Notes under the pieces: model-generated | What the model was told of the DNA's origin: nothing | The model's database searches: none | Seen by the model: the letters and a program-made list of their open reading frames with translations, nothing else | Source of the DNA: Patescibacteria group bacterium | GTDB lineage: Bacteria > Patescibacteriota > Patescibacteriia > UBA9934 > GWF2-40-263 | Direction: 5' to 3' | Length of the DNA stretch: 64,000 nucleotides | NCBI GenBank assembly: GCA_041661745.1 | Contig: JBAZTR010000001.1 | Span: 186,471 to 250,470, forward strand | Shown: positions 32,949 through 62,749 of the stretch, in pieces | How the letters are laid out: each line of letters begins with the position of its first letter | Numbering within the stretch: the stretch's first letter is position 1 | Program-made: the position numbers and the translations under genes

Positions 32949-32957
32949 ATTTTAGGC

Positions 32958-33035
32958 TCAAGTATGTAGTGGGTAGTATGTAGGCAAAAGTTCTAATTAG
33001 AACTCCTGCCTACCTACTACATACTACCTACTAAA
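32958..33035. repeat. family-1 heptad repeats as an inverted pair without cargo (about 75-nt hairpin) between cvpA and metG
   Basis: AGTATGTAGTGGGTAGTATGTAGGCAAAAG, then a palindromic spacer GTTCTAATTAGAAC, then CTCCTGCCTACCTACTACATACTACCTACT. Confidence 0.7.
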
Positions 33036-33037
33036 AG

Positions 33038-34546
33038 CTAATTATTTTTAGGAAAAAGCGGCTCGCCTTTGGCGATTTTGTGGCCCGGAGTCAGTTCACC
33101 CCACACCCAAGCTGATTCAAACGATTGATTAAATTCTTTCGGGGCTTCAAGACCGAGTTGAACAAAAAGTTTCTCGGCTGTCTCGGGCATAAATGGAACC
33201 AACATCCAAGCAATGTGGCGCAGGGTTTCGAGCAAAACGTAAAGGGTGTCGTTCAACATTTTCTTTTCCTCCATTTTGGCCAACTGCCACGGTTGTTGTT
33301 GCTCAACAAATTGATTGGCTTGACGAATCAAATTCCAAATAATATCCAAGGCATCACTCAAACGATTTTCTTCAAGAGCTAAATGGTAGGCTTGCCATGC
33401 CCCGGCAAGAAACCCGTCAGCTTTTTCCGGAACAACACCGTCGGTGTATTTCTCAGTCATGGCCAGAACGCGATTTACCAAGTTGCCAAATTCGTTGGCT
33501 AACTCGTTATCATAACGGGCCACCAAACGGCTTTCCGAAAAATCACCATCCCCACCAAACGGAATTTCACGAAAAAGAAAATAACGAAGGACGTCGTTGC
33601 CGTATTTTTGGGTCATTTCAATTGGGTCAACAACATTACCAATGGACTTAGACATTTTTTGTCCATCAATAGTGAAAAAACCATGAGCAAAAACCTGCTT
33701 GGGCAATGGTAAACCGGCTGACATTAACATGGCCGGCCACAAGGCACAGTGAAATTTAATAATATCTTTACCAACCAAATGCAAATCAACCGGCCACCAT
33801 TTTTCAAAAGCCGTCGGATCATCAGCATAACCCACGCCGGAAAGATAATTGATCAGGGCATCGAACCAAACGTAAATGCGATGTTTTTCATCGCCAGGCA
33901 CGGAAATGCCCCACTCCACGGTTTCGCGAGAAATGGAAATATCCGTCATGAAGTTACGAATATAACTCAAGACTTCGTTCCGTTTGGCCTCGGGCTGAAT
34001 AAAATCAGGATGTTCACCAATGTAAGCCAACAAATCATCACGATATTTTGTTAAACGGAAAAAATAATTATTTTCTTTCAGAGCTGTTGGAGCTTTTTGA
34101 TGATCGGGACACAAACCGTTAACCAAATCAGTTTCATTTTTAAAAGCCTCACAGCCTTGGCAATACAAACCTTCATAAGAACCAAGATAAATATCACCTT
34201 TGGCTTCGACGGCTTTCCAAAACTTTTCCACGGACTGGTGATGAACTTTTTCCGTGGTGCGGATAAAACGATTATGCGTTAAACCCAACGAATCAAAAGT
34301 TCGCTCCCACAACGCCGCCATTTCGTCCAAATAACCTTGAACATCGGCGGCGCGACCAACCTTGGCCGCGGCCTCAACGTTTTTTTGGCTGTTTTCATCA
34401 GTGCCGGTTTGAAACATTACTTCCTCGCCCAGCATGCGGTGATAACGGGCCAAAATATCCGCGGCAATTGCCGTGTAAGCGTGGCCAATCGACGGCTTAC
34501 CGTTGATGTAATAAATCGGGGTGGTTATGTAAAACTTTTTGGGCAT
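33038..34546 (-). CDS. metG: methionine--tRNA ligase
   Basis: The 502-aa product has the HIGH motif PSIGHAYT, KMSKS, and the zinc knuckle CPDH...CQGC. Confidence 0.95.
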   Translation of the reverse strand: MPKKFYITTPIYYINGKPSIGHAYTAIAADILARYHRMLGEEVMFQTGTDENSQKNVEAAAKVGRAADVQGYLDEMAALWERTFDSLGLTHNRFIRTTEKVHHQSVEKFWKAVEAKGDIYLGSYEGLYCQGCEAFKNETDLVNGLCPDHQKAPTALKENNYFFRLTKYRDDLLAYIGEHPDFIQPEAKRNEVLSYIRNFMTDISISRETVEWGISVPGDEKHRIYVWFDALINYLSGVGYADDPTAFEKWWPVDLHLVGKDIIKFHCALWPAMLMSAGLPLPKQVFAHGFFTIDGQKMSKSIGNVVDPIEMTQKYGNDVLRYFLFREIPFGGDGDFSESRLVARYDNELANEFGNLVNRVLAMTEKYTDGVVPEKADGFLAGAWQAYHLALEENRLSDALDIIWNLIRQANQFVEQQQPWQLAKMEEKKMLNDTLYVLLETLRHIAWMLVPFMPETAEKLFVQLGLEAPKEFNQSFESAWVWGELTPGHKIAKGEPLFPKNN

Positions 34547-35205: not shown

Positions 35206-35725
35206 AGATTCCCTCTCCCCTTACCCTCCCCCGTCGTGGCAACGAGGGAGGGAGAATTATTTAAGATAAGTTTTAATTTTAATTAAAATTTTCTGCGGAT
35301 CTTCCAATACTTCTTGGTTTTTAAACCTAATAATCTTGTAGCCAAGTCTTTCTAAATTTTCTGTTCTCTCTCGATCACTTACTTTTGCTTCATAGCAATT
35401 GTGGATGTCTCCGTCTATCTCAATGATTAACTTCTTACTCCGGCAACAGAAATCGGCTATATAATTTTCTATTCCGTGCTGCCTAACAAATCTTATTCCA
35501 AGTTCGTTTCTTCGCAAATGTTGCCATAATACTGTTTCGGCATCAGTTTGGTTTTTCCGTAAAAACTGTCTGGTTACTTTTTGTTTTAGTTTATTGACTA
35601 AATGTTTTTCGAACATAACAAATAGTTCTTCCTCCCTCACTGCCGCAGTGGGGGAGGATTACCCGCCTTCGCCAAGGCTACGGCGGGTCCTCCGTAGCTT
35701 TAGCGAAGGAGGAGAGGAGAGGGCC
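35206..35725. mobile_element. second MITE-like DUF559 cassette with G-rich terminal inverted repeats
   Basis: The left end CCCTCTCCCCTTACCCTCCCCCGTCGTGGCAACGAGGGAGGGAG and the right end ...GGGGGAGG...GAAGGAGGAGAGGAGAGGGCC match the ends of the 31968-32462 element. It exactly fills the rsmI-DUF3179 spacer. Confidence 0.55.
35257..35640 (-). CDS. DUF559 (Vsr-like endonuclease fold) protein, second copy
   Basis: The 127-aa product has ...VLWQHLRRNELGIRFVRQHGIENYIADFCCRSKKLIIEIDGDIH...LGYKIIRF. Confidence 0.75.
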   Translation of the reverse strand: MREEELFVMFEKHLVNKLKQKVTRQFLRKNQTDAETVLWQHLRRNELGIRFVRQHGIENYIADFCCRSKKLIIEIDGDIHNCYEAKVSDRERTENLERLGYKIIRFKNQEVLEDPQKILIKIKTYLK

Positions 35726-36680: not shown

Positions 36681-37757
36681 CTAGCGGTGGCCGGGGGCGG
36701 CGACGATCCCGTTGATCGGAGCGGGCGGAGCGAGTCCCTCCTCGATCGAGTTGGCCACCATAGTAAGTCTGCCGGCGATCAAGGCAGCAGCCAGGAGGAT
36801 CGCCAGGACCACGCTCCCGATGACCGCCGGAACCACCCACGGCTTCATGGGGGCCGGCGGGACGGCCGGGGCAGGAGGCTCGGGCGGCGGGGGCGGCTTG
36901 GCCATGTGCGGCGTCAGCTGGTCGACCACCTCCTTAACGGCCTTGCCGACCATCTCGCCATTCCGGATCATCAGGTCGCCGACGATCTTCGGATCAACGC
37001 CGGGCGGGATCGCGATGACCGGAGCGGCGACTCGCGAGGCCGAGCCCGCGGGCGGGGTCGAGCTGCGCGGAGGAGGCGACGGCGGCGGGGCGGCGACCTT
37101 GGTCTTGAACGTGAAGGCGTCCGCCAGGAAGACGGACTCGCCACCGTTGTTCTTGACCTCGACGCTCGCCACTCCGACCGGGAAGGCGGGAGTCTTGGCC
37201 AGGATCTTGGTGTCGGACACGAACCGGATGTCCGTGCCGACGACCTTGGTCGCGGGCGTGAAGAAGAACACCTGGCAGTCGGCCGTGAAGCCGCTGCCGG
37301 TCACCTCGACCTCGAGGCCACCAGTCTCCTCGCCCTCGGTGGGCGTGATGGAGGTGACGGCGAGAACGGGAGGCGGTGGGGGCGGAGGCGGCGGTGGGCT
37401 GCTGATCGCGACGACCCAGCCGACCGCTCGGGCGTGGGCGAGCGCCCGATCCTTGAAGTCGGGCCGCCAGTCCCGGATGGCCTCGAGCTCGGTCATGATC
37501 TCGGCCTCGGAGCGGTTGGCCGAAGCCACGACCAGCTCCTCGACCTTGCAGATGATGTCGATGACCGTGGTGTCATCGTTGCCCAGCGCGGCCGCTTTCG
37601 TGAACTTGTCCGCGACATCGACCGAGACGTTGTCCCACTCGGTGAACTTCCAGGCCATGAGCGAGCTGAAGTCGCCGGCCGGGCTGGGGGCAGACCAGAT
37701 GGCCACGGCCGCATGGAACGCGGCCTGCTGTTCTGGGGTGAGGGTAGTGATGTCCAT
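36681..37757 (-). CDS. high-GC surface-type protein with an IPT/TIG-like Ig domain, poly-Pro linkers and a C-terminal TM anchor
   Basis: The 358-aa product has PPPPPPPPPP; an Ig-like segment VTSITPTEGEETGGLEVEVTGSGF...VFFF...IRFVSDTKILAKTP...VEVKNNGG..SV..D.FTF; and a C-terminal hydrophobic stretch AVIGSVVLAILLAAALIAG. GGAGA lies before the ATG. The long + strand ORFs here are Arg-rich antisense artefacts. Confidence 0.6.
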   Translation of the reverse strand: MDITTLTPEQQAAFHAAVAIWSAPSPAGDFSSLMAWKFTEWDNVSVDVADKFTKAAALGNDDTTVIDIICKVEELVVASANRSEAEIMTELEAIRDWRPDFKDRALAHARAVGWVVAISSPPPPPPPPPPVLAVTSITPTEGEETGGLEVEVTGSGFTADCQVFFFTPATKVVGTDIRFVSDTKILAKTPAFPVGVASVEVKNNGGESVFLADAFTFKTKVAAPPPSPPPRSSTPPAGSASRVAAPVIAIPPGVDPKIVGDLMIRNGEMVGKAVKEVVDQLTPHMAKPPPPPEPPAPAVPPAPMKPWVVPAVIGSVVLAILLAAALIAGRLTMVANSIEEGLAPPAPINGIVAAPGHR

Positions 37758-37908
37758 GGTATCTCCGGGGTCAGGGAGGGTGGGAGAAGGTGCATCAAAC
37801 AGCCGAAAAACCGGCCGAATGAACAGAGAAAAATATCACATTTTCCAAAAAAAGTCAAGAATCTTATCAAAAACAAAAATTTATCAAAAAAAGAATTTCC
37901 TTCTAATC

Positions 37909-37938
37909 TTGACAAAAACCAAAAAATGGGCTATTTTA
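37909..37938 (+). promoter_or_regulatory. sigma70-like promoter (TTGACA, 17 nt spacer, TATTTT) in the AT-rich divergent spacer, driving the 38065 gene
   Basis: cTTGACAaaaaccaaaaaatgggcTATTTTact. A strong SD GGGAGGA lies 6 nt before the ATG at 38065. Confidence 0.45.
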
Positions 37939-38064
37939 CTTAGCTCGAATTGAGCACAAGGTAGTTAGCTCCCTAAACAATTCACCCAATTCGTTCGTAA
38001 GTTTTTTTGTCGTAATTCTTCGCCAGAACGCTGAACACACCCGAACCCCGAAAGGGAGGACAAA

Positions 38065-39222
38065 ATGAGCGAGATCAACATCCTGGATCTCTGGGCAGCA
38101 ACCGGCATCATGGAGGCGCTCCTGCCCCTGATCCGAGAGGTCGACAAAAGGTTCGTCCCCGAGGACCACAACCTGACCTACAACCAGGTCGAGTGGAGCC
38201 GTCACGGCGACGGATGCATCGGAAGCATCATGCTCGTCGACGAGGACGGCAAGGATCAGGAGATCGCCTGCTACCCGATCTCGACCAGGTGGAACGTGGA
38301 CATCACCACCCCCCACATGGTACTGGCCTTCCAGGTCACCAGAAGCAACAACGAACCCGAAACCGAGGACGACCTGAGCGACGGTCGCTGGTACGCCATT
38401 CCGGTCGGTCTGGCACCAACCTCGATCCGGACCAAAGTCGAGAGGGCCTTCCAGGAAGTCGGCCTCCTCAACGGTCGTCTCCCCGGCCTCAAGCCGCACG
38501 AGTGGGACGACTCTCCGGAACGCCGGTTCAACCTGGTCTTCCAGCGCCGGCGCGGCGACATGATCGCCTGGTACCAGGGGAAGGTCTGCGTCCTGGTCGA
38601 AGGTTCGCCAATCCCCAAGCCCGGCAAGGAGGTCATCTGCGAAGTGGTGACCGAGCGCCTGAGCAAGGTCGTCGTCCGCTGGACGGGCATGACCGTCGAG
38701 CAGGCCAGGAAGAGGATCGACGAACAGCGACGCCTGGCCGGTCTCCGAAGCAGCATCCGCCGGGCCGCGCGCGTGGAGCGACCCGAGCTCAAGGATCCCG
38801 TGGCCGCCATGGGGCTCGAGCCGGACAAGCTGAGCGGCGGACGCCTCAACAGCGCCTACCGCCGGCTGCGCCAGCAGGTCCCGACGACCGAGGAGGAGGC
38901 CGGCGCCAACCCGCTGGCCAAGGCCATGGTCGAAGTCGGCCTGCCCTTCCAGGCCGACAACCTAGACTGGCCGGTGTTCTACGCCGAGTACCTCGACCGG
39001 GCCGACCGGGCCGCGGTCCAGGTCCTCAAGGACAAGCGCACGAAGGAGCGCGAGGAGGCCGAACGCACGGCCACCCCGCCGCCCGTCGAGCCCGCCACCG
39101 AAGGCGAGGGCCACGAGGAAGCGGTCGCCGACCTCGACACCGCCGACGAAGACCTCCTGGTCGAGGAGTCGACCGACGACGGCTCCGCCCAGCCCCGCGA
39201 GGAGGGCGCGAACGCGAAGTAG
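38065..39222 (+). CDS. high-GC hypothetical protein (385 aa, acidic C-terminal tail)
   Basis: A long ORF with a strong RBS and its own promoter and terminator. No motif recognised. The C-terminus is Glu/Asp-rich. Confidence 0.55.
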   Translation: MSEINILDLWAATGIMEALLPLIREVDKRFVPEDHNLTYNQVEWSRHGDGCIGSIMLVDEDGKDQEIACYPISTRWNVDITTPHMVLAFQVTRSNNEPETEDDLSDGRWYAIPVGLAPTSIRTKVERAFQEVGLLNGRLPGLKPHEWDDSPERRFNLVFQRRRGDMIAWYQGKVCVLVEGSPIPKPGKEVICEVVTERLSKVVVRWTGMTVEQARKRIDEQRRLAGLRSSIRRAARVERPELKDPVAAMGLEPDKLSGGRLNSAYRRLRQQVPTTEEEAGANPLAKAMVEVGLPFQADNLDWPVFYAEYLDRADRAAVQVLKDKRTKEREEAERTATPPPVEPATEGEGHEEAVADLDTADEDLLVEESTDDGSAQPREEGANAK

Positions 39223-42258: not shown

Positions 42259-42838
42259 AAGGGGTCGAAGGGGTTAAAAGGGTTAAAGGGGACAAAGGGT
42301 TTTTTCGCTCAATTGTTTGAAAGTAGCTTCTCCCAAAATTTCTGAACCATCGACAAACTGCCAGGTGGGATAACCCTTAATGCCGGCTGTAGCACAAACC
42401 TCGGCTTGGCCGGATTCGTTATCAGCGGCGCATTCAATGTAATTAATATACTGAACGCTTTCACCAAAAGCTTTCTTTTGCTTTTGGCAGTGCGGACACC
42501 AAGAAGCACCGTATAAAGCCGCTCCCTTTTCGGTTAGACATTTGGCAAAAGCATCCATGTCCGTTGGAGCAGTTGGTTCGGAAGGAACCGAAACGTCGGA
42601 AGCGGAATTTGTGGTAGCCGATTCATTAGCATCGGTTTTTGCTTCGCTTTTATTATTGATAAAGACAAAACCACAGACAATAATTAAGACAAAAATTCCA
42701 AATATCACCAAAAGAATTGGGTGAGTTTTATGCAGATTAAATTTCATAGCTGTTTTATTGTAGCAAAAAAAGACTAAAAGGCCAAAACCCTTTAGTCCCC
42801 TTAACGCCCCATAATGCCCTTTAAGGCCCGAACGCCGC
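42259..42838. repeat. family-4 G-tract inverted repeats (TTAAAGGGGACAAAGGGTTTT) bracketing the thioredoxin-like gene
   Basis: 42259-42300 reads AAGGGGTCGAAGGGGTTAAAAGGGTTAAAGGGGACAAAGGGTTTTTT. The reverse complement of 42788-42838 reads ...GGGCGTTAAGGGGACTAAAGGGTTTTGG. The element fills the gpsA-typA spacer exactly. Confidence 0.5.
42283..42747 (-). CDS. membrane-anchored thioredoxin-fold protein (WCPHC active site)
   Basis: The product has an N-terminal TM and ...LYGASWCPHCQKQK.... The start was moved to MKFNLHK. Confidence 0.6.
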   Translation of the reverse strand: MKFNLHKTHPILLVIFGIFVLIIVCGFVFINNKSEAKTDANESATTNSASDVSVPSEPTAPTDMDAFAKCLTEKGAALYGASWCPHCQKQKKAFGESVQYINYIECAADNESGQAEVCATAGIKGYPTWQFVDGSEILGEATFKQLSEKTLCPL

Positions 42839-44665
42839 TTACAAACCCAAACGTTTGGCCTGATCCCGATGACGCGCATTCAAATCAAGGATTGTCTTTC
42901 TAATACGTAAATTTTTTGGAGTGACTTCCAACAGCTCATCATCGCCCAAATATTCGAGGCAAGCTTCCAAAGTCATAATTCGTGGAGCTTCCAAGGCCGC
43001 GCTAACACCGTCACCTTTACTGCGCATGTTGGAAAGACGTTTTTCTTTACAAGGATTAACTTCCACATCCTCAGTGCGAGAATACTGACCAACGACCATA
43101 CCGGCGTAAACCTCGACCCCGGTATCGACGAACAACGTGCCACGCAGCTGTAAGTTGCGTAAAGCGTAACCAACGGTCTCGCCGTTTTCCATGGAAACGA
43201 GCGAACCGTGAGCCCCGGCGGACATTTCACCGGCAAAGGGCCGATAACCCAAAAGTAAGCTGTTGATAATACCCTGCCCTTTAGTATCAGTTAAAAACTC
43301 GCTGCGATAACCAATAAGACCGCGGGTTGGAATCTCAAATTCAAGAAATGAAGTTCCGTTTTCAACTTTCATGTCCTTCATTTCACCGCGACGCTGACCC
43401 ATTTTTTCAATAACAATACCACCGAAACTTTCCGGACATTCTAAAAAGACGGATTCGTAAGGCTCGGTTCTGACCCCGTTTTCCTCGTGGAAAATAACCT
43501 GCGGGCGCGAGACTTCCATTTCATAACCCTCACGACGCATTTTTTCAATCAAAATAGCCAAGTGCAATTCACCACGACCGGAAACCACAAAACCGCTGTC
43601 ATTTTCGCCTTGTTCAACTCGCAAAGCCACGTCGTTCAAAAGTTCACGATCCAAACGTTCTTTCAAATTACGGGAGGTGGAATAAATTCCCTCATTACCG
43701 GCAAAAGGCGAGGTGTTAACGGCAAAAGTCATTTTAACTGTCGGCTCTTCGATTTTTGTTACCGGCAACGCAATAGGATTAGCTGTATCAGCAATAGTTT
43801 CACCAATCTGAACATCTTCCACACCGGAAACAGCGACAATTTCACCGGCGGGAATTTCATCAGCTTCAACACGGCTCAAGCCATCAAAAATTTGAACGCT
43901 GGTTAATCTAACTTGTTTGGAAACACCATCACGATTGATATGAGTAACCATTTGGCCATTACGAACCACGCCACCAATAACTCGGCCAATAGCAATGCGA
44001 CCCTTGTAGTTGTCGTACTGAAGGTTAACCACGGAAATCTGTAACGGTTTTGTAGCATCACCAGTTGGCGCAGGAATTTTTTCCACAATCACATCAAGCA
44101 AAGCGGAAACATCTTTCATGGAAGACAAATCCGGTTCAACGCCAGCCACGCCATTAACCGCCGAAGCGTAGATAACTGGGAAATCAGTCTGCTCATCGGT
44201 CGCCCCGAGCTCCACAAACAAATCAAAAGTCTTATTCAACACCCAATCTGGCCGTGCATCCTTTTTGTCGATCTTATTGATGACAACAATAATCTTGTGT
44301 CCGGCCTCCAAGGCCTTGCGAAGAACGAAACGAGTCTGTGGCATGGGACCTTCCTTGGCATCAACAAGCAAAAGACAGCCATCGACAAGATTCATGATGC
44401 GCTCCACCTCACCGCCAAAGTCCGCGTGTCCCGGAGTATCGACAATATTGATTTTAATACCCTTCCATTTAATGGAAGCGTTTTTGGAAAAAATAGTAAT
44501 ACCACGTTCACGTTCAAGCTCGTTTGAGTCCATGATGGTGGTGCCCATGGCCGCGGCATCACGGAAGGTATTTGACTGTTTCAAAAGCGCGTCGACCAAA
44601 GTGGTTTTACCATGGTCAACGTGGGCAATAATGGCAACGTTTCGGATTTGGTCAGGGGAAATCAT
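42839..44665 (-). CDS. typA: translational GTPase TypA/BipA
   Basis: The product has [32 protein letters not shown] and the EF-G-like domains. The ORF track start is 44704. The likely start is MISPDQ. Confidence 0.9.
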
Positions 44666-44822
44666 AAGCGCGGTGATGATAACTGGTTTTTGGCTAATTG
44701 TCAATAATTTATTTTACGAGAAGAGCCTTTAAACGTCTTTTACGGTTGACATTTGTTCTTTTTCATAGTATCGTTATGGGCCGTCAAAATGACGAAGTTC
44801 CTTCAATCCCCTTTCTTATCGA

Positions 44823-46027
44823 TGGAGAAACCCATGCCCACGGAACGTATCGAACAAGCCCTGGCCTATTGGGAAGACATCTGCGTGCTGGAACGTCATC
44901 TGGCCATGCTAGAGGCCTTGCGTAAAAAGAAAAAATTCGAGCCCAAAGGGCCACTCAAGTACCTCGGATTCAGACAGGTCCTTGAAGAAGGCCTGGGGTG
45001 GAGCTTCGAATTCCTCTACGAGGGTGACCGAAAATCGTTGCAGGCAATGAAGCTGCTTCCGTTGATGATCTACGCCTGGATGTACTCATCCAAACGTGTC
45101 TTCCGAATGTCGTCTAAAACGATCGACGAACTGCTTCGCGAAGACCATCGACCGCCACCGTGCACCTGGGGAGAATTCCCCTGGCCGTTCGAGGCCTTCG
45201 TCGTGTCGTTCGAAACACCGCTACACCTACGACCAGAAGCCGATGGGTCTTACGACACCCTGATTGTCGTGAGTATCGTGCGCGATGGACACATGACTCT
45301 GTTGCTGCAGTGGTTGCCGGTTTTTCTCACCGAGTATCAACCGCTGACAGGCAAGGAGACGAGCGAAATGCTCATCGATCTTGGCGAAGAGGTTCGCCGA
45401 GGTCGCGAAGAGGTTCGCCAGGCCGGCGATGCAATCTTGGCCAAACTGCCCCGCAAAGTGCGTCGCCTACTAAAACGACAAAACCTGACGGCCGCCGCCG
45501 AGAAAACGGTCGGGTATACGGACGAAGAAATCGATCAATTGATAAACAACGACAAAGAGTACCTCCATTTGATCAGCTTTCCGGCCTTCCTGATTGATCG
45601 GGGCCTCTTCAGCGTAATCGGAGATCTGAACGAAAAGATAAGCGAAGGACCGCTTATGCGGCTCATCTATTCCTTCTGCAATCTCATCGCCAACGGAACA
45701 CGCGTAACTGAGGTTGTCGGAAGATCGAAACATCCAAAGACCGGCTCGTCGCGTAGCAACGACTTCACCGACGGGGCAAATATCTTCGAAGTCGGCTCGC
45801 AAACTGAATTCGCAAGTGGTGTGCGAACCAGGCATGCCTCCGACGAGCCGTCGGGTCGTACGGTGCGTCCGCACCCGCGACGCGGCTTTTACCGTCGCCC
45901 GCACGGCAGTGACCTCGAAGCGCCCAAGTCTGAGTGGGTAAACTCCACGTGGATCCACAGAGACGAAGCCACAAACAGGGGTCTACTCCCTGTATGCGAA
46001 ATCGTCGTGGATACGTCCAAGACTTGA
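44823..46027 (+). CDS. high-GC hypothetical protein (about 400 aa)
   Basis: A long ORF in a 60%+ GC segment that begins abruptly about 70 nt after typA. The precise start is uncertain. No motif recognised. Confidence 0.5.
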
Positions 46028-46037
46028 CCCTACCCTA

Positions 46038-46100
46038 CCCAGTCCGCCAAGACTGGGATTTTTTTATAAACAAAAAACAACCCTCCACGAAGGAAAGTTA
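46038..46100 (+). repeat. direct repeat A: terminator module CCCAGTC-CGCCAA-GACTGGG plus T7, then AAACAAAAAACAACCCTCCACGAAGGA(A/G)AGTT
   Basis: The 62 nt are identical to 47139-47201 except 1 nt. The first hairpin with its U-run looks like an intrinsic terminator. Confidence 0.75.
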
Positions 46101-46188
46101 TCTTTGATGACTCAATTGACGGTTTGTTTTAAAACATTTATACTCGATCAGCCGTAGAATTAAACGGCAAACAAAGAGAGGCTCCTTC

Positions 46189-46443
46189 ATGAAGATCAAA
46201 CGGTTCTTGTTGGGAGGGCTCGTCTTCCTCTGCATCCCCTTCCTCGCGGGCATCGACTGCAAGAAGCGGCTCGACTGCGCCGAAGAACACGTGGCCTGCG
46301 ACCAGCGCTGTGCCGAGGCGGCCAGCACCACCGGTCAGAACATCGTCACCACCTACTTCTACTGCAACGAGTTCACCGGCGATGTCGTCTGCGAGTGCGG
46401 GCTCGGCCTGGACTACGGCAGCTTCGAAACCTGTGAAGGCTAG
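46189..46443 (+). CDS. small secreted cysteine-rich peptide (signal peptide plus 8 Cys), high GC
   Basis: MKIKRFLLGGLVFLCIPFLAGIDC... has a lipobox-like LAGIDC. The mature part has 8 Cys in about 60 aa. AGAGAGG lies before the ATG. Confidence 0.55.
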   Translation: MKIKRFLLGGLVFLCIPFLAGIDCKKRLDCAEEHVACDQRCAEAASTTGQNIVTTYFYCNEFTGDVVCECGLGLDYGSFETCEG

Positions 46444-46457
46444 GAGGAAGAACCACC

Positions 46458-47087
46458 ATGCTCATGCTTCTCGCCATCACCATCAGTGCCCTCGCGGGTA
46501 CCTACCACGTGAACTTCCCGATCGTCAGCGGAGCTCCGACCAATCCGCTCGATGACGTCTTCGTCCTCACGGTCTCGGCGTGGGACCTCGACCAGAACCA
46601 GCAGAACGGGATCTACGACTCGAGCTGGCGCTTCATCAAGTGCGAGGCCAAGGACGGCGACCTCTACGTCCACTTCACCGGGAAGAAGACGGACTGGCCG
46701 ACCAGCTGGCCCCAGCAGGTCACCTGCTCGGGCTATGGCAACACCCTGGTCGTACACCCGGTGTCTCCGAGTGTGTACGAGCCGAGCATGATCGAGATCA
46801 CCGGCGACGACGAGATCTACTTCACGATGGCCACGGGGATCACCAAGCTCCGGACCATCAAGATCCCGGACGGCGACTACGACGTCGAGAGCTGCTTCGC
46901 GGCCCACGACGACAACGACGATCTGTGGAGCGGCGTCACCTGTGACCCGATCGCGAGCGACGACGACAACTTCGTGCGCGTCTACATCACCGGCGATGCG
47001 GCCGCGGGAACCGGAACCTGCGTCATCCCGGGGTTCAACAACACCCCGGACCTGACCATCACCATCAACCTCGACGGGCGTCCCTAG
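46458..47087 (+). CDS. secreted hypothetical protein, high GC, immediately after the Cys-rich peptide
   Basis: The 209-aa product has an N-terminal hydrophobic signal MLMLLAITISALAG. It starts 14 nt after the previous gene behind GGAGGA. No motif recognised. Confidence 0.5.
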   Translation: MLMLLAITISALAGTYHVNFPIVSGAPTNPLDDVFVLTVSAWDLDQNQQNGIYDSSWRFIKCEAKDGDLYVHFTGKKTDWPTSWPQQVTCSGYGNTLVVHPVSPSVYEPSMIEITGDDEIYFTMATGITKLRTIKIPDGDYDVESCFAAHDDNDDLWSGVTCDPIASDDDNFVRVYITGDAAAGTGTCVIPGFNNTPDLTITINLDGRP

Positions 47088-47138
47088 GTAGCCCCTCACC
47101 TCCTCACGCTACACATCGCAAGACGGTGTAGCGCTGAG

Positions 47139-47201
47139 CCCCCAGTCCGCCAAGACTGGGATTTTTTTATAAACAAAAAACAACCCTCCACGAAGGAGAG
47201 T
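47139..47201 (+). repeat. direct repeat B (copy of the terminator module at 46038-46100)
   Basis: See repeat A. Further hairpins follow (GCCAGTTTAACTGGC, AGAAAAAGCTTAGCTTTTTCT) and a 12-bp inverted repeat CACCAAGCTGAG/CTCAGCTTGGTG ends at the tRNA. Confidence 0.75.
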
Positions 47202-47320
47202 TGTTTTTAGTGAGCCAGTTTAACTGGCTTCACCAAGCTGAGTCTGAATTTTATTCTAGGTGCACCAGAGAAAAAGCTTAGCTTTTTCTCTTACAACAGA
47301 ATAAGAAACCAAGCTCAGCT

Positions 47321-47395
47321 TGGTGACCCCACCGGGAATCGAACCCGGATTTGCGCCGTGAGAGGGCGCCGTCCTAACCGTTAGACGATAGGGCC
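47321..47395 (-). tRNA. tRNA-Glu (anticodon CUC), CCA encoded
   Basis: The minus strand reads GGCCCTA-TC-GTCT-AACGGTTA-GGAC-G-GCGCC-CTCTCAC-GGCGC-AAAT-CCGGG-TTCGATT-CCCGG-TGGGGTC-A-CCA. The cloverleaf is complete, with U33, A37 and a canonical T-loop. Confidence 0.85.
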
Positions 47396-47638
47396 ATTAT
47401 AATTGCCATCTTTTAATTGTTTACGAATGAACCCTGAATTTTTTATTTGTTTTTCCCTTTGCAAAGCCTCTGTTTTACTCTGAAATTCCTCAGTATAAAT
47501 TAACTTATAAGGTCGATATGGTTTTGTTGATTTTGTTTTTCCACTATTGTGTTGTTTCAATCTTTTGTCAAGGTCAGCAGATGAACCTATATATAATCGT
47601 TCATCTTTTTCACTTTGTAAAACATAGACAAAATACAT
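47381..47638 (-). CDS. GIY-YIG nuclease (small UPF0213-type, homing-endonuclease-like), 3' end overlaps the tRNA 5' end
   Basis: The product MYFVYVLQSEKDERLYIGSSADLDKRLKQHNSG...PYKLIYTEEF.SKTEALQREKQIK is the classic GIY-YIG module. Its last 5 codons (GPIV plus stop) are encoded by tRNA positions 1-15. Confidence 0.8.
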   Translation of the reverse strand: MYFVYVLQSEKDERLYIGSSADLDKRLKQHNSGKTKSTKPYRPYKLIYTEEFQSKTEALQREKQIKNSGFIRKQLKDGNYNGPIV

Positions 47639-47648
47639 AGTTTTCAAA

Positions 47649-47709
47649 GGCGCCGTCCTAACCGCCCGGCGGAGCCGGGTCCGGCTTCGCCGGATTAGAC
47701 GATAGGGCC
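47649..47709 (-). pseudogene. duplicated tRNA-Glu 5' half (acceptor/D-arm/anticodon-stem 5' strand) with a 30-nt GC-rich hairpin insertion in the D-loop
   Basis: The minus strand reads GGCCCTATCGTCTAA[TCCGGCGAAGCCGGACCCGGCTCCGCCGGG]CGGTTAGGACGGCGCC. This equals positions 1-31 of the downstream tRNA and stops at the anticodon stem, directly abutting the GIY-YIG start. Confidence 0.6.
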
Positions 47710-47824
47710 GTTTTGACGCTGACTAAGATAACACAAAAAAAGTTTTTTGTCGAGGATTGACACAAAGCCAATTTTGTTATATTTTCATTTGTCGACACTT
47801 TTCCTCTCCAACCTGGAGGTATCG

Positions 47825-48100
47825 ATGAATCGCCACAAGTTTCTGGTCACAAGTGCACTCTTGGGGTCTCTGGCCGGCATCTCGTGGTTCGCGATGCTGG
47901 TCACAGCACCCGTGTCCATAGTTCTGCTCGTCTCCTCCACTCAGCTCATCGAGAAGTACCTGGGCGAGTGGTGGTCCTGCACCATCCTGCCCTTCGCCCT
48001 CGTGTACCTCGCGTACAACATCGTGATCGGGGGAACGGCCGCCTTCTGCTACCGGCGCTACATGCGACACACCCGCAGTGCCAATGCGGTCGCCTCCTAG
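47825..48100 (+). CDS. small high-GC membrane protein (two or three TM helices)
   Basis: MNRHKFLVTSALLGSLAGISWFAMLVTAPVSIVLLV... follows GGAGGT 6 nt upstream. The ORF track starts at 47747. Confidence 0.5.
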   Translation: MNRHKFLVTSALLGSLAGISWFAMLVTAPVSIVLLVSSTQLIEKYLGEWWSCTILPFALVYLAYNIVIGGTAAFCYRRYMRHTRSANAVAS

Positions 48101-48254: not shown

Positions 48255-49676
48255 TTGTCACAAAAGCACATCCTCACGCCATGGAATGTGCTGGTGGCAA
48301 TCATCGGTTCATTCCTTGGGTCAATCGCGTTGGTAAGCATTAACTCCGACATCGGATCTGATGCGGAAAAAATTGGCAGCTCGGCCTGGTTCATCATGCA
48401 AGGCATGCTGCCATACAAGGAGATCATCGAAGTTAACCAGCCCGGAACACTTTTATACCTGATGGGGCTCAAGTCGATTAGCCAATCAGACATGTGTTTC
48501 CGTCTGGCAGATCTGCTGATGCTTGCGATAATTGTAGGTCTACTGTGGCGTCTCGGCAAAACAACTGGGACCTTCGCCGCCGCGCCGGCCGTGTTCTATT
48601 CCGGGTTTCATCTAATCATGCTCGGACACAACGGCACTGTGCAGCGCGATGCAGTTATTACCGCGTTTGTGCTTGGTGCTGCAGTACTGGTCGTACAATG
48701 GGAAAAAGAACACCAGGACTGGCAACTCGCCGTGGCTGGGTTACTTATTGGCTGTGCCTCGACCATCAAGGTTGACGCTGTCCTGTTTGCTATACCCCTC
48801 GGCACCCTCGTACTGAAAAACGAGTGGCGTAAGCTGTCCCTTCCAATCGACGGCGCAATTCTACCGTTGATGGCCGTTGTTTTCTGGGTGGACTACTACG
48901 ATGCTCTCCCGGATCTGTGGTGGGTCATGACAACATTGATCCCCATAGCTAACGGCCCGGAGACGTACGGCCTCATGCCACAAATCCCCATCTGGATGCG
49001 CTTCGTGGTGACGATCGTCGCGGTGGTAATTTCCAGTGCCGCCGTCTATCGAAACCCGGGTCGTAATCTCATGTGGGCAATGACCATTATGGGTGCCCTG
49101 CACTTGATTGTGCAAAATAAGGGTTTCTGGTACCACTTCCTGCCAATCTTGGCTTTCGGCAGTGTGGCCATCATGCAGATGAAAAAACCAACGCGTTACC
49201 CTGTTGCCGTCGCGCTGGTTTGCACGTGGCCACTCATGTGGTTCATTCCGGACGATCAACAGAGCACGACGCATTCGGACGTTATTCCTGTCGAAACCGC
49301 GCTTCGGAACCTACCAACCGAGGCAAGAATACAACCTCTCACCTACGTGGACTCGGTGTCAGGCGCCATGGTCAAGGCTGGGCGACTGCCGGCAACTGGC
49401 ATGGTGTACGACCTGTTCCTTTTCATGGGGAAAGATACCCCGGCAAGGAACGAAATACGTCACCGTTTCCTCACGGATGTACAAAACGATCCGCCAGACT
49501 ACTTTGTCACAAGTCGCGACAGCGACCCAAGGGGCTTTGACAAACTGTTGGCCTGGCCGGAATTCAAGACTTGGCTTGAACAAAACTACATCATCGAAAT
49601 CGACAACGGCGTCTATCGGATCTACTGTTACAAATTCGCCAACAACCTAGTTTCTTCACGTACTTCCACCCCCTGA
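48255..49676 (+). CDS. high-GC polytopic membrane protein, possibly a GT-C-fold glycosyltransferase (DUF2029/PMT-like)
   Basis: The 473-aa product has 10 or more hydrophobic helices. The family call is a guess from overall architecture only. Confidence 0.4.
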   Translation: MSQKHILTPWNVLVAIIGSFLGSIALVSINSDIGSDAEKIGSSAWFIMQGMLPYKEIIEVNQPGTLLYLMGLKSISQSDMCFRLADLLMLAIIVGLLWRLGKTTGTFAAAPAVFYSGFHLIMLGHNGTVQRDAVITAFVLGAAVLVVQWEKEHQDWQLAVAGLLIGCASTIKVDAVLFAIPLGTLVLKNEWRKLSLPIDGAILPLMAVVFWVDYYDALPDLWWVMTTLIPIANGPETYGLMPQIPIWMRFVVTIVAVVISSAAVYRNPGRNLMWAMTIMGALHLIVQNKGFWYHFLPILAFGSVAIMQMKKPTRYPVAVALVCTWPLMWFIPDDQQSTTHSDVIPVETALRNLPTEARIQPLTYVDSVSGAMVKAGRLPATGMVYDLFLFMGKDTPARNEIRHRFLTDVQNDPPDYFVTSRDSDPRGFDKLLAWPEFKTWLEQNYIIEIDNGVYRIYCYKFANNLVSSRTSTP

Positions 49677-55246: not shown

Positions 55247-55257
55247 ATTTATTTTAG

Positions 55258-55326
55258 GTTAGTAGTATGTAGTATGTAGTGGGTAGGCAATAGATTTAAT
55301 CGGGAACTTTTGCCTACATACTACCT
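55258..55326. repeat. family-1 heptad repeats as an inverted pair without cargo
   Basis: AGTAGTATGTAGTATGTAGTGGGTAGGCAA, then a spacer, then TTGCCTACATACTACCTACTAC. Confidence 0.7.
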
Positions 55327-55327
55327 A

Positions 55328-56668
55328 CTACAAACTCGAACCAATCAATCCTCGGCCACGAACCACACGATGATATTTTACCGCAAAACGATGGGCTTCG
55401 TCACGGGCTCGTTGAAAAACCTCTTTACCCATGGCTGCCAGGCGTGCCAGTTCGCGATCATTAACATTATAAACCAACCGATCTTGTTTGCGATCAAAAC
55501 CCTTGGCAATACCGATCAGTGGTGTTTTCACCCCGGCCTCGCGCAAAACGCGAGCCACGCGATTTATCTGTCCTTCCCCACCGTCGATAATAAAGACTTC
55601 CGGCAAGGGCCATTCAGTATGTTTAAGACGACGACGCAGCACTTCCTCCAACATTGCCACGTCATTGGCACCTTTAACGCTTTTAATTTTAAATTTGCGA
55701 TAAAGATTCTTGGCCGGCTCGCCTGATTCAAAAACCACCATCGAGCCAACGGACGAAGTGCCGGAAATATTGCTGATATCGTAGGCCTCAAGGCGACCCA
55801 TCAAATCCAACCCTTCCTTTTCTGTTTTGGTTAGCGGCAAGGCAAAATCTTCGCGGGAAATCACGGCTACATCCTGAATGTGTTCCAGAGCGAAAATTTT
55901 GTTGCGTAATTTGGCAGCCGCCTCAAATTTCATTTCCTTGGACAACTGCTTCATGTCTTTTTTCATTTGGCTGACCAGACGCGATTTTTTCCCTTCAAAA
56001 AACAAAATCAACTGTTTAACGATGTTGTGATAATCTTTTTTAGAAATAGCCCCGGAACAAACGCCCGGACAACGGCCGATATGAACGTTAAAGCATGGTT
56101 TACTTCGACCAGTAACGGCTGGCGGCTGGCAATCGCTCCACTGAATAATTTTGCGAATCAAATCAAGGGCCTTGCGTAATGAAGCGCCGCTGGTGTACGG
56201 ACCAAAAACCGCCAAAAATTGTTTTTTGGCTTTTGGTGAAAGGGTGCGGCTAAACGGATTGATACCAAAACGTTCCAGTTCCAAACCACGATACAAAATC
56301 GGCCTGGGAAAATCTTCGTTGGTAATAGTAAGGTAAAGAAAACTTTTGTCATCGCGCTCCAAAATATTGTATTTGGGCCGGCGGGCTTTAATTTGGTTGG
56401 CTTCCAAAACCAGAGCTTCGATTACTGTTGGTGTCTCCGAATAATCAATTCTGGCGATTTGCGCCACCATTTCGGCAATCCGACGATCATGGGCTTTTGT
56501 AAAATACGAGCCAACGCGCTTTTTAAGCGAGGTGGCCTTGCCAACGTACATCAAAACTCCGGCCGTGTTGTAAAAGAAGTACACGCCCGGCGAATCAGGC
56601 AGCGCCTTGTTTTTAATTTTAATTTTTTTCGGGATCATATCTTTATTTGATTCTTCCACGCTTGACAA
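55328..56668 (-). CDS. uvrC: excinuclease ABC subunit C (short form)
   Basis: The product has the N-terminal GIY-YIG PGVYFFYN...LMYVGKATSLKKRV, a UvrBC-interaction region, and a C-terminal RNase-H-like/HhH domain. Confidence 0.85.
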   Translation of the reverse strand: MSSVEESNKDMIPKKIKIKNKALPDSPGVYFFYNTAGVLMYVGKATSLKKRVGSYFTKAHDRRIAEMVAQIARIDYSETPTVIEALVLEANQIKARRPKYNILERDDKSFLYLTITNEDFPRPILYRGLELERFGINPFSRTLSPKAKKQFLAVFGPYTSGASLRKALDLIRKIIQWSDCQPPAVTGRSKPCFNVHIGRCPGVCSGAISKKDYHNIVKQLILFFEGKKSRLVSQMKKDMKQLSKEMKFEAAAKLRNKIFALEHIQDVAVISREDFALPLTKTEKEGLDLMGRLEAYDISNISGTSSVGSMVVFESGEPAKNLYRKFKIKSVKGANDVAMLEEVLRRRLKHTEWPLPEVFIIDGGEGQINRVARVLREAGVKTPLIGIAKGFDRKQDRLVYNVNDRELARLAAMGKEVFQRARDEAHRFAVKYHRVVRGRGLIGSSL

Positions 56669-59992: not shown

Positions 59993-60077
59993 TAGGACAC
60001 TAGGAGGGTAGGAGACTAGGAAGCTAGGCAGATGTAAGTTCAAGACTAGTTTCCTAGCCTCCTAGTTTCCTAGCCTC
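59993..60077. repeat. family-2 heptad repeats (CTAGGAGG/CTAGGAAACTAG) as an inverted pair; the right arm encodes the last 7 codons of uvrB
   Basis: CTAGGAGGGTAGGAGACTAGGAAGCTAGGCAG ... ACTAGTTTCCTAGCCTCCTAGTTTCCTAGCCTCC. The UvrB C-terminus KEARKLGG is read from the repeat. Confidence 0.65.
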
Positions 60078-62160: not shown

Positions 62161-62308
62161 CACAAGAGCGGTCACTCTAGGGGGTAATAAGATAAGTTGT
62201 GATTAGAATTTAACAGAAAACACGGCAATTGGCAAGATTATTGACTTTTGGGAAATGCTGGGCTAAATTAATCGGTCCGCGAATACCTCGCGGCTTCTGG
62301 AGGCTCCC

Positions 62309-62602: not shown

Positions 62603-62749
62603 CTACCCTTCTCGCTTCGACTTTCACCACAAGGTGGAGGTCTTTTTTTATTTAGGAATTAAAACATTTTTAAAACCATTGACGCCTAATTTCAAAAGTG
62701 TTAACTTGTTCTGTCCGCAAATACCTTGCGGCTTCCAGAGGAGGCTTCC

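Follow-up and report, generated by a model that had tools for sequence, protein, structure and literature searches.

A duplicated, predicted bidirectional terminator flanks a foreign two-gene unit near a tRNA-Glu gene in a Patescibacteria chromosome

Genes and setting of the locus

We analyzed a 64-kb stretch of a 366-kb contig (hereafter, the window) from a chromosome of Patescibacteria (CPR) near Candidatus Uhrbacteria, which has ~44% GC and host genes with GC3 values of 0.37 to 0.45 (~0.4). On the 3' side of a tRNA-Glu (CTC) gene (47321-47395, − strand), two foreign units meet, namely, a 397-aa gene and a two-gene cassette, the insert being flanked by DNA of 36 to 39% GC. In the closest relative found (L032), MurF, tRNA-Glu(CTC), and TypA are neighbors within a distance of 549 nt, and this adjacency identifies the locus as an insertion hotspot, of which tRNA-Glu(CTC) is the ancestral landmark. 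The island proteins are absent from 80 of 80 related loci, and the cassette was not found in any close relative. The MurF-TypA stretch, with tRNA-Glu at its center, has taken up several foreign transcription units. A previous sequence-only reading of the window had described an array ending at the tRNA; a tRNA-adjacent locus with several insertions is borne out by the synteny in L032 and by foreign units of differing composition. Several small self-contained units, some with codon usage of the 62 to 72% GC type, accumulate on both sides of this one tRNA gene.

The upstream unit is the 397-aa gene, annotated as AcrVA2-like (44834 to 46027, + strand; GC 0.55, GC3 0.64). It had been taken for a 424-aa gene, which is the longest mechanical open reading frame from a TTG; the annotated product has 397 aa and starts at the ATG at 44834. 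In the preceding intergenic region (44666-44833; 38% GC), a consensus scan returned a sigma-70-like promoter match for this gene (TTGACA-17-TATCGT, 44746 to 44774, + strand) and, divergent from it, a TypA promoter match (44704-44676). Homologs of the 397-aa protein include P0014 (49% identity) and P0015 (40%), the former encoded in a different context (GlmS / GDSL lipase) on a Patescibacteria contig of 53 to 55% GC, where its composition is native. The 397-aa gene is a separate acquisition from the cassette, and was probably acquired earlier, from a Patescibacterium of ~55% GC.

As for its annotation, the precomputed PF26125 match is flagged 'faint' for the 397-aa protein and is unmarked (E <= 1e-5) for P0014, hmmscan gave no PF26125 match in the 397-aa protein, P0014, or P0015, and the AcrVA2-like label of the 397-aa protein was left unconfirmed by PDB profile search, tblastn, and an AF2 model. 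Alignment of the three sequences revealed a P-H-x-R-R-G-x-Y-R-R block with invariant H347 and R349, corresponding to HSRRGH in P0014. The AcrVA2/FinQ family has a conserved C-terminal HxR motif that is needed for activity (bioRxiv 10.1101/2022.11.29.518452). The 397-aa gene resembles this family in its faint precomputed PF26125 match, its conserved C-terminal H-x-R block, which fits that motif, the HxRxxH of its 49%-identical homolog, and its occurrence as a single gene in different genomic contexts, but differs in that no Cas12a or other target is known at this locus.

The cassette consists of a gene for an 84-aa Cys-rich protein (46189 to 46443, + strand; GC3 0.88) and a gene for a 209-aa exported protein (46458 to 47087, + strand; GC3 0.92). 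The two form an operon, as indicated by an AGGAGG in the 14-nt gap between the stop codon of the first and the start of the second, and their GC3 of 0.88 to 0.92 versus ~0.4 for the host marks them as foreign. Both proteins are predicted to be exported via N-terminal signal sequences. More specifically, the 84-aa protein by eye presents a basic MKIKR, a 16-residue hydrophobic core, and LAG/IDC, with no canonical lipobox, and the N-terminus of the 209-aa protein is short and hydrophobic and ends ALAG/TY, a pattern common to its family. The foreign GC3 and the signal sequences uphold the previous description of a discrete two-gene, high-GC unit for secreted proteins; the count of 8 Cys in the 84-aa peptide needs refining, as 8 Cys lie in the mature part and one more in the signal peptide (9 in total).

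Searches of Pfam, NCBIfam, PHROG, and PADLOC gave no match for either cassette protein, and BLASTP detected no similarity between the 84-aa protein and the small partners described below. The 209-aa protein is nonetheless not an orphan, but belongs to a previously unannotated ~210-aa signal-peptide family, with 58 remote homologs that are all ~200 to 215 aa long and share a short signal peptide and four conserved Cys (C62, C90, C162, and C188 in the 209-aa protein). Its predicted structure comprises two Ig-like beta-sandwich domains (pLDDT 87), and the best structural neighbors of the model are S-layer, adhesin, pilin, and titin domains. Family members show native composition on contigs of 61 to 72% GC, and two of the family contexts contain phage-type PHROG matches. 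Upstream of the 209-aa homolog, 4 of the 7 loci examined encode a small (82 to 88 aa) Cys-rich lipoprotein or secreted protein. The small partners in L118, L119, and L126 occupy the same position, have 82 to 88 aa, and carry canonical or near-canonical lipoboxes; position, size, and Cys spacing, rather than detectable sequence similarity, tie the small partners together. The gene pair occurs in the phage-like contigs L119-121 and L126, in the former on the strand opposite to its neighbors. An unannotated module has thereby been revealed, in which a small Cys-rich lipoprotein or secreted protein is paired with a two-Ig-domain, four-Cys protein; this module is found repeatedly in phage-like contigs of high-GC bacteria and has made its way into Patescibacteria.

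The cassette would make two exported, disulfide-bonded proteins, one small and Cys-rich, the other with two Ig domains. Going by fold and context, the most likely site of action of these proteins is the cell surface, in attachment, exclusion, or surface masking, and a toxin function is unlikely. In an episymbiont, surface proteins gained by acquisition could plausibly govern how the cell attaches to its host or excludes phages. The cassette had also been likened to a bacteriocin or toxin module, i.e., a Cys-rich secreted peptide with an accessory or immunity partner. Bacteriocins are commonly of foreign origin and found in a mobile-element context, both of which fit the cassette, as does a first gene with a small, exported, 8-Cys product and a cotranscribed gene next to it. 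However, (i) the partner is a predicted secreted protein of two Ig-like domains and not a membrane immunity protein or transporter; (ii) no double-glycine leader, ABC transporter, modification enzyme, or immunity gene is present nearby; (iii) the small partner is lipoprotein-like (membrane-anchored) in three other loci; (iv) the 210-aa gene also occurs without the small partner, in PrsW and peptidase C15 contexts; and (v) the four database searches above gave no match. We regard a bacteriocin or toxin module as very unlikely.

A terminator-like element in two copies

The 397-aa gene and the cassette are each followed by a copy of the same element, termed R (R1, 46038 to 46117; R2, 47141 to 47220). 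The copies lie in the same orientation, 1,103 nt apart from start to start, so that the cassette is indeed bounded by direct repeats. The first 57 nt are exactly identical (46038-46094 and 47141-47197), with 61/62 and 72/80 identities over the longer stretches. Beyond the exact block, 15 of 23 positions agree in register (P ~1.6e-4), which indicates that the repeated unit measures ~80 nt and that its identity drops stepwise beyond nt 57; the left edge of R is sharp (leftward extension, 0 nt). The sequence-only reading had given two identical 62-nt direct repeats, of which the orientation stands and full identity does not, and had placed the second copy at 47139, two nucleotides before its true start. 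Both halves of the R module occur in the window at the R1 and R2 sites only (chance expectation, 0 matches), and no further copy was found in the window, in IMG/VR, among the metagenome contigs of JGI, or in fetched loci totaling 1.66 Mb.

The + strand half of R contains a 7-bp GC-rich hairpin (CCCAGTC-CGCCAA-GACTGGG) followed by T7, and the − strand half contains a 14-bp hairpin followed by a T-run; each is a predicted intrinsic terminator. Consistently, a terminator scan returned, for R1, a site on each strand (+, 46038; −, 46105), and likewise for R2 (+, 47141; −, 47208), and the fold z-scores of the R hairpins range from −2.2 to −5.6. Consensus scan and folds together predict R to be an ~80-nt bidirectional intrinsic terminator. 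A module made of a terminator hairpin plus T7, as first described, is accurate for the + strand, but the second half is the − strand hairpin with its own T-run. As to their identity, the repeats are in large part simply duplicated terminators, the outcome that the sequence-only reading had set against its own proposal.

In R2, both hairpins are intact (z = −5.6 on each strand; the 14-bp − strand stem has 5 G-C pairs), and the − strand hairpin of R1 differs from that of R2 by three transitions in the distal arm that retain G-U pairing. R2 has the cassette (+) on one side and tRNA-Glu (−) on the other, and their convergent transcription calls for a terminator acting in both directions; R2 would separate the two transcription units, and R1 would terminate the 397-aa gene. 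The − strand half of R1, lying between codirectional neighbors, has no obvious use. Like the bidirectional rho-independent terminators of convergent genes, R2 has a GC-rich stem and a T-run for each strand; in contrast to them, R is present twice, 1,103 nt apart, with R1 between codirectional genes.

Although the cassette had appeared promoterless, a consensus scan located a sigma-70-like match for it (TTGACG-17-TATACT, 46116 to 46144, + strand; 10/12 positions), 45 nt ahead of the ATG of the 84-aa gene and within a leader (46095-46188) of host-like 36% GC. Its own predicted terminator is the hairpin plus T7 at 47141-47168, preceded in a 3' untranslated region of 62% GC by a fifth fold, a GC-rich hairpin, CGCTACAC...GTGTAGCG, that lacks a T-run (47103 to 47138, + strand; z = −5.3) and was probably imported together with the foreign genes.

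Between R2 and the tRNA gene lies a palindromic spacer (47202 to 47326, − strand; −57.3 kcal/mol, z = −6.75) made of a 17-nt hairpin and a ~97-nt hairpin, the outer arm of the latter, TCACCAAGCTGAG, including the 3' CCA end of the tRNA. The repeats had been said to abut the tRNA; in fact, ~120 nt of strongly folding sequence intervenes, and the tRNA, whose 3' end faces R2, is encoded on the opposite strand. R (47141-47220) and the tRNA (47321-47395) neither overlap nor have any sequence in common. A tRNA-targeted att core was considered and rejected, as R is not a copy of any part of this tRNA gene. Two separate observations concern other genes. On the other side of tRNA-Glu, the first 31 nt of the tRNA are duplicated around a GIY-YIG gene. 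A dispersed hairpin element has a 23S-rRNA-IVP gene in its loop.

Origin of the insert

A repeat-bounded insert of deviant composition is a classic signature of a chimeric join, and the cassette has both properties; the Logan unitig described next also breaks exactly at the repeat. A GC-rich fragment of another organism might have been joined in through the 57-nt repeat. Against this, this single unbranched Logan unitig (k=31) from a different run (SRR6484324) extends from 30 nt inside R1 to 30 nt inside R2 and holds the AT-rich leader, both GC-rich genes, and the edges of both repeats. Moreover, independent assemblies, namely, ENA/megahit (k=141), NCBI, and JGI, agree on the proteins and their arrangement on contigs of 203 to 366 kb, and the AT-rich sequence of R would be out of place in a donor of 62 to 72% GC. 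An assembly artefact is already largely refuted and can be set aside as extremely improbable.

On balance, we think it probable that a moron-like transcription unit, the cassette, recombined into the chromosome at a terminator and that this terminator was duplicated in the process. The unit would be a self-contained piece of 1.1 kb, with a host-type AT-rich promoter and leader, two translationally linked genes, and a GC-rich 3' hairpin, and probably entered by recombination within or at the terminator. One route would be a single Campbell-type crossover with a DNA, circular or looped out, in which a related terminator copy was already present; such an event would leave one terminator copy at either end of the insert, and the identity step (57 nt exact, then 65%) would then be the trace of the crossover or of a conversion tract. 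One crossover of diverged copies would not alone produce 57 identical nt, and conversion is required as a further step. Neither an empty site nor a circular form nor a donor locus was detected, and the absence of R elsewhere in the searched data makes the postulated donor copy of R hypothetical. The coding sequences appear to trace to high-GC bacteria or their phages, and the AT-rich regulatory DNA of the insert points to another low-GC Patescibacterium, or a mobile element of one, as the probable immediate donor. Horizontal gene transfer in Patescibacteria reportedly takes place mostly between Patescibacteria (PMC12455944).

Morons are independent transcription units that spread by horizontal gene transfer, as defined in PMC3594210. 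Like morons and genomic islets, the cassette has its own predicted promoter and terminator, sits between two existing units, and differs sharply in composition from its neighbors, and the homologous gene pair is placed in moron fashion in two phage-like contigs. The differences are that the cassette belongs to a cellular chromosome, in a window where phage genes were not found, and that the duplicated ~80-nt terminator flanking it is foreign to the moron concept.

A local tandem duplication of the terminator, or of a whole promoter-gene-terminator unit, by slippage or unequal crossing-over, with the foreign genes landing between the copies later or replacing a paralog, could also have produced two copies of R. 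This genome does contain tandem copies of a transcription unit, at 62.2-63.3 kb, where two paralogous GC-rich genes have AT-rich, homologous leaders (local alignment score, 41 versus 14.7 +/- 2.3 for shuffles) and each carry a terminator ending in GGTGGAGGTCTTTTT. At the present locus, in contrast, homology is absent between the leaders of the 397-aa gene and the cassette (score, 14, the level of shuffles), and the proteins of the two units are unrelated and differ in codon composition. Two independent events would be needed, versus one for insertion with duplication, and we hold a local duplication to be unlikely.

Site-specific integration, which had been suggested at the tRNA, would make R the attL/attR core of a small nonautonomous cassette (CIME-, MITE-, or integron-cassette-like), with a tyrosine or serine recombinase acting in trans from elsewhere or from a helper element. 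The attL and attR sites formed from attP and attB often have an identical core, a sharp edge, and an imperfect one-sided extension, as do R1 and R2; the tRNA-adjacent hotspot and a compact cassette devoid of replication or mobility genes of its own are likewise in keeping with such integration. Yet neither our scans of large open reading frames (0.6-13.8 kb and 52.7-64 kb) nor the precomputed Pfam matches (~13-56 kb) revealed an integrase, transposase, or HUH enzyme domain in the 64 kb of the window; the sequence-only reading had already remarked that it contains no integrase. In addition, R stands apart from the tRNA, its two copies remain the only ones in the data searched, and other loci with the same gene pair have no flanking repeats. 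These points render site-specific integration unlikely. In common with tRNA-associated genomic islands (attL/attR), the locus shows direct repeats in the same orientation, foreign DNA, a tRNA gene, and a reused hotspot; it departs from them in that the window contains no integrase at an island end, the insert measures only 1.1 kb, and R is a terminator ~120 nt from the tRNA and not a copy of a tRNA 3' end.

The related idea of an integron-like cassette array is not supported. Integron cassettes carry an attC imperfect palindrome with RYYYAAC and GTTRRRY, have IntI beside the array, and lack a promoter of their own. The present units are similarly short, and a shared hairpin-forming module, identically oriented, follows each of them. 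On the other hand, a regular-expression scan of 45991-47260 found no GTTRRRY, and the sole RYYYAAC sites, at 47033 (inside the 209-aa gene) and 47218, both fall outside the exact repeat; R consequently lacks the R'/R'' core sites of attC. Further differences are that no IntI lies in the window, that the cassette has a promoter-like site, and that R, with only two copies, consists of two separate terminator hairpins and not of one attC palindrome.

Hairpin terminators of this CPR genome might also be the places at which an integrase-independent or trans-acting process captures ready-made promoter-ORF-terminator units and duplicates the target hairpin; such capture would be integron-like, with terminators taking the role of attC. 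It is hinted at by the R-cassette-R arrangement, by the GIY-YIG gene with its duplicated tRNA 5' half, and by the 23S-rRNA-IVP gene in its hairpin loop, and we give it very little credence. If true, streamlined CPR genomes would have a general route, directed by hairpins, for gaining surface-protein and anti-defense genes from unrelated phyla.

What the locus records

On our reading, the locus is an ordinary gene-acquisition scar, and neither a new mobile-cassette system nor a bacteriocin locus. It provides a nucleotide-resolution record of gene gain by a streamlined CPR genome, in which a duplicated two-way terminator can be the sole scar of gene acquisition. It also carries a warning for annotation, as gene callers chose wrong-strand shadow ORFs in GC-rich inserts: a 219-aa ORF that overlaps the 209-aa gene on the − strand (46440-47099), entered as a gene in the ENA record, was rejected here as a shadow ORF with a GC1 of 0.90.

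Two copies of a predicted bidirectional terminator around the cassette

Two copies of the repeated terminator module R lie in the same orientation at 46038-46117 (R1) and 47141-47220 (R2), 1103 nt apart. The sequence-only reading had recognized both direct copies, and these are real, but it described them as identical over 62 nt and placed the second at 47139; the second copy starts at 47141, and identity over those positions is 61/62. More specifically, the initial 57 nt match exactly, no similarity extends leftward, and identity drops abruptly past nucleotide 57. The following 23 nt still match in register at 15 positions (P ~1.6e-4 for local composition), and therefore the homologous unit is ~80 nt (72/80 matches). 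Within the window, each half of R matches at these two sites alone, and shuffled sequences gave zero matches.

A consensus scan revealed terminator-like sites at both copies and on both strands. The + strand site of R is CCCAGTC-CGCCAA-GACTGGG followed by ATTTTTTT, and the - strand site of R2 is a 14-pair stem, AAAAACAACTCTCC-TTCGT-GGAGGGTTGTTTTT, followed by TGTTTAT. Folding z was -5.6 on both the + and the - strand of R2, and -2.2 (+) and -3.8 (-) for R1, whose distal arm carries three differences, all transitions, with G-U pairing retained in the - strand RNA. A two-way terminator makes sense at R2, which lies between the + strand cassette and a - strand tRNA; R1 lies between two + strand units. 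Searches for the module elsewhere were negative: integron cassette recombination sites (attC) are absent from R at the level of core sites, Rfam matched the tRNA alone at this locus in gathering and permissive modes, the second hairpin of R had no match in IMG/VR, and a fuzzy search of all 1.66 Mb of fetched loci returned the known copies only. Querying JGI metagenome contigs with the R hairpin and a free loop yielded 24 loci, none related; we rejected these as copies of R, as they are unrelated terminators sharing only a 7-bp stem.

The cassette between R1 and R2 consists of an 84-aa Cys-rich gene and a 209-aa gene (46458-47087, +), separated by a 14-nt gap containing AGGAGG. It had been thought promoterless-looking, but a sigma-70-like match (TTGACG-17-TATACT, 46116-46144, +) lies in the 36% GC leader, so that by sequence the cassette does not lack a promoter. 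GC at the three codon positions is 0.53/0.42/0.88 for the 84-aa ORF and 0.54/0.43/0.92 for the 209-aa ORF, and GC3 of the neighbouring host genes is 0.37-0.45. Both ORFs thus show the pattern of genuine coding sequence that comes from a high-GC organism. An overlapping 219-aa ORF on the - strand, listed as a gene in the ENA record, was rejected as a shadow ORF (GC1 0.90). The 53-nt 3' UTR is 62% GC, with a hairpin but no T-run, and the 94-nt leader resembles the host, as does R; thus, high-GC DNA begins near the start codon and continues as far as the edge of R2.

An assembly artefact as the source of the R-cassette-R arrangement is very unlikely, close to negligible. The same proteins are recorded in NCBI (Patescibacteria MAG, MFA6131671-73), JGI, ENA and Logan, with contigs reaching 366 kb, and a 1106-nt Logan unitig from SRR6484324, spanning from 30 nt inside R1 to 30 nt inside R2, joins the AT-rich leader and the GC-rich genes without a branch. 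That the unitig ends inside R is expected from a k=31 graph meeting a 57-nt repeat.

The cassette proteins and their relatives

Neither cassette protein matched Pfam, NCBIfam, PHROG or PADLOC, and both are single-member clusters among 15 billion sequences. The 209-aa family is recoverable by exhaustive phmmer and not by word-indexed search: the latter returned only the query, and the former, run against 1.84 billion representatives, returned 58 homologs (22-36% identity), all of ~200-215 aa. A profile search with the family alignment gave at least 4 proteins among the matches listed. In the alignments, the N-terminus is short and hydrophobic and ends in an AxA-like site, and four cysteines (C62, C90, C162 and C188) are conserved and, in the 21 closest sequences, invariant. 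From 48 family members, AlphaFold2 gave an all-beta model (mean pLDDT 87); Foldseek matched it to Pfs48/45 6-Cys proteins and tandem Ig domains in the PDB, and a viral fold library gave generic Ig-like matches only. Taken together, alignments, model and fold matches therefore predict a secreted protein of two Ig-like domains with disulfide bonds and no recognisable toxin. The suggestion that the two-gene module is bacteriocin- or toxin-like thus finds no support, and we regard a bacteriocin module as highly improbable. The 84-aa peptide had been credited with 8 Cys; it contains 9 in total, 8 of them past the predicted signal sequence.

Family members reside on contigs of 61-72% GC, to which their composition is native, and a small ORF lies immediately upstream of the family gene in 4/7 distinct loci examined: 84 aa in the window, 82 aa in loci L117/L118 (LHGC), 88 aa in loci L119-121 (lipobox VASC) and 88 aa in loci L126-127 (lipobox IVAC). 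These partners have in common their size, position, signal or lipobox, and C-x17/18-C-x6-8-C spacing; BLASTP among them detected no similarity. Phage-type genes (RdgC-like exonuclease, ParB-like protein, polymerase exonuclease) accompany the pair in L119-121, where it is on the opposite strand relative to both neighbours, and L126 carries phrog_2693 and a MazG-type pyrophosphatase. Family members without a small partner also exist, some adjoining PrsW protease, peptidase C15 or PstS genes and one adjoining M78 peptidase, RES and LRR genes. Flanking direct repeats are absent from all these other family loci. By tblastn, the 209-aa protein and the protein labelled P0017 were unmatched in GenBank phages and PLSDB plasmids, and an IMG/VR search with P0017 and a further protein, P0019, found nothing.

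Near the cassette, beside TypA, a - strand gene (42283-42879) encodes a thioredoxin-like protein that is membrane-anchored and carries a WCPHC motif. As a candidate disulfide oxidoreductase of the extracytoplasmic space, it could serve the Cys-rich exported proteins gained in its vicinity.

The tRNA-Glu locus and a proposed route of insertion

The tRNA-Glu(CTC) gene is located at 47321-47395 (-). Contrary to the earlier proposal, R2 does not abut it: ~120 nt of hairpin-rich sequence intervene. This spacer (47202-47326) holds a 17-nt hairpin and a near-perfect ~97-nt hairpin (-57 kcal/mol, z = -6.75) whose outer arm takes in the tRNA 3' CCA end, and an inverted 12-nt copy of the tRNA 3' end (CACCAAGCTGAG) lies at 47232-47243.

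TypA-based retrieval places the organism near Candidatus Uhrbacteria, with best TypA identities of 78% (locus L032) and 72-74% for several Uhrbacteria and Patescibacteria MAGs; a TypA scan of the genome collection without the MAG itself, serving as strain comparison, found no relative above 78% protein identity. In L032, from the closest relative found, MurF, tRNA-Glu(CTC) and TypA all lie within 549 nt; in the window, inserted genes separate the three. Those 5' of the tRNA comprise, besides a 128-aa ORF and a tRNA fragment, genes for a glycosyltransferase, a 117-aa membrane protein and a GIY-YIG endonuclease, and those 3' of it are the cassette and the 397-aa gene. Island proteins are encoded in 0/80 related loci.

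A further two genes of deviant composition, beyond the tRNA, encode the 117-aa membrane protein (47747-48100; GC3 0.78; a TTGACA-17-TATTTT match of its own and a terminator rich in GC) and a 473-aa GT87/PMT_2-type glycosyltransferase (48255-49676; GC3 0.63). Within 47381-47710 (-), the initial 31 nt of tRNA-Glu are duplicated, and the copy (47648-47710) carries a 30-nt GC-rich double hairpin at the D-loop position. This fragment and the intact tRNA flank an 88-aa GIY-YIG endonuclease gene, whose final four codons and stop (GPIV*) are the initial 15 nt of the real tRNA. It is a second insert at the locus with a duplicated target flanking it.

Upstream of R1, the + strand gene previously read as 424 aa is indeed present, with an annotated length of 397 aa from an ATG at 44834. 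Its GC3 (0.64) is unlike both host and cassette. Its protein has two homologs (49% and 40% identity); the former, P0014, is encoded between GlmS and a GDSL lipase, a context differing from the window, on a Patescibacteria contig of 53-55% GC from the same samples, where the gene's composition is native. The AcrVA2-like label is provisional. Precomputed PF26125 was marked "faint" for the 397-aa protein and unmarked for the 49% homolog, and hmmscan and a PDB profile search did not reproduce it. A P-H-x-R-R-G-x-Y-R-R block is invariant across the three sequences (HSRRGH in the 49% homolog), and it corresponds to the C-terminal HxR motif that is reportedly essential for AcrVA2 and is also conserved in FinQ (bioRxiv 10.1101/2022.11.29.518452). 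The protein was unmatched in GenBank phages and PLSDB plasmids (tblastn), PADLOC and PHROGs, an AcrVA2-like alignment found nothing in IMG/VR, and a three-sequence AF2 model was unusable (pLDDT 39).

Two units of separate origin carry the same two-way terminator at their 3' ends, and the repeated interval contains AT-rich regulatory DNA. We infer that the 1103-nt interval entered ready-made and low-GC-regulated, with leader, genes, 3' hairpin and one terminator copy, and that recombination at a resident terminator would have duplicated that terminator; the geometry fits a circular DNA integrated by one Campbell-type crossover, with the 57-nt tract undergoing conversion. An alternative route, site-specific integration through a recombinase that is encoded elsewhere, is unlikely. 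None of its defining features was found; in the window, precomputed Pfam (~13-56 kb) and our own scans of large ORFs (0.6-13.8 and 52.7-64 kb; BacA, TrwB/VirD4-like ATPases, SecDF, UvrABC, RsmH and others) yielded no integrase, transposase or HUH enzyme domains. That R was duplicated independently of the insertion is likewise doubtful: tandem paralogous units do occur at 62.2-63.3 kb, but the leaders in island C, which holds the cassette, are unrelated. For the same lack of leader homology, we rejected the idea that one "expression slot" was duplicated and its ORFs swapped to give the two units. Donation of whole units with AT-rich flanks by high-GC Uhrbacteria relatives was rejected because AT-rich intergenic windows are scarce or absent in the loci of these relatives.

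Under entry at the resident terminator, the immediate donor was probably another Patescibacterium or its mobile element, because the leader is host-like and horizontal transfer in Patescibacteria is reported to occur mostly within the phylum (PMC12455944); the ultimate source of the coding sequences would be high-GC bacteria or the phages of such bacteria. The cassette fits the definition of a moron, an independently transcribed unit disseminated by horizontal transfer (PMC3594210), except that it lies outside any prophage. It is a self-contained unit of two foreign genes for predicted exported proteins, with a predicted bidirectional terminator duplicated around it, at a tRNA-centred CPR hotspot. 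The event is understood in outline and exemplifies an already known kind; its by-products, an unannotated two-gene family and acquisitions stacked around one tRNA, are of modest value.

Other islands and repeats in the window

At 62170-63300, two paralogous GC-rich genes without a Pfam match (62309-62602 and 62752-63238, +) each have a homologous AT-rich promoter region and 5' UTR hairpin (CCGCGAATACCTCGCGG / CCGCAAATACCTTGCGG), and the terminator of each ends in GGTGGAGGTCTTTTT. The two are diverged tandem copies of an entire transcription unit, located between UvrB and an ABC ATPase gene. A hairpin of CTAGG-rich arms (60003-60080) lies 3' of the UvrB-like gene, and one of its arms (29 nt) has another copy, at 97% identity, at 63358-63386 (region 63350-63394), directly past the next - strand gene; therefore, a second repeat pair brackets a host gene and this island. 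A further high-GC island (36681-39222, 62-64% GC) comprises a 358-aa gene (-, named IPT/TIG domain-containing protein by NCBI) and a 385-aa gene (+), both with GC3 0.89, which are divergent about a strongly AT-rich promoter region and both have a GC-stem terminator; the ENA call there (418 aa, +) was rejected as a shadow ORF (GC1 0.81).

A dispersed long-hairpin element, with arms of about AGTATGTAGTRGGTAGTATGTAGGCA / TGCCTACCTACTACATACT, occurs at 1771-2198, 32952-33041 and 55253-55345, and the loop of the first copy holds a 116-aa gene (1812-2162, -; Pfam 23S_rRNA_IVP, E 2e-36). Region 2201-9077 (-) encodes a paralogous pair of 578-579-aa proteins without a Pfam match (163-nt repeat, 72% identity), followed by two TrwB/VirD4/TraG-like coupling-protein ATPases; the cluster resembles those for type IV secretion or DNA uptake. 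Beside a sortase gene, an 835-aa ORF (15737-18244, -) with strong GC skew contains repeats of 9-nt period at 16384-16924 (CCACCCTCT on the + strand; the coding strand is Gly/Glu-rich), and its product is probably a repetitive sortase-anchored surface protein. Lastly, two 119-aa DUF559 / MTES_1575 (Vsr-like endonuclease fold) genes (32035-32394 and 35257-35640, -) lie 3 kb apart in housekeeping surroundings and, like the GIY-YIG gene, may be small selfish endonuclease genes.
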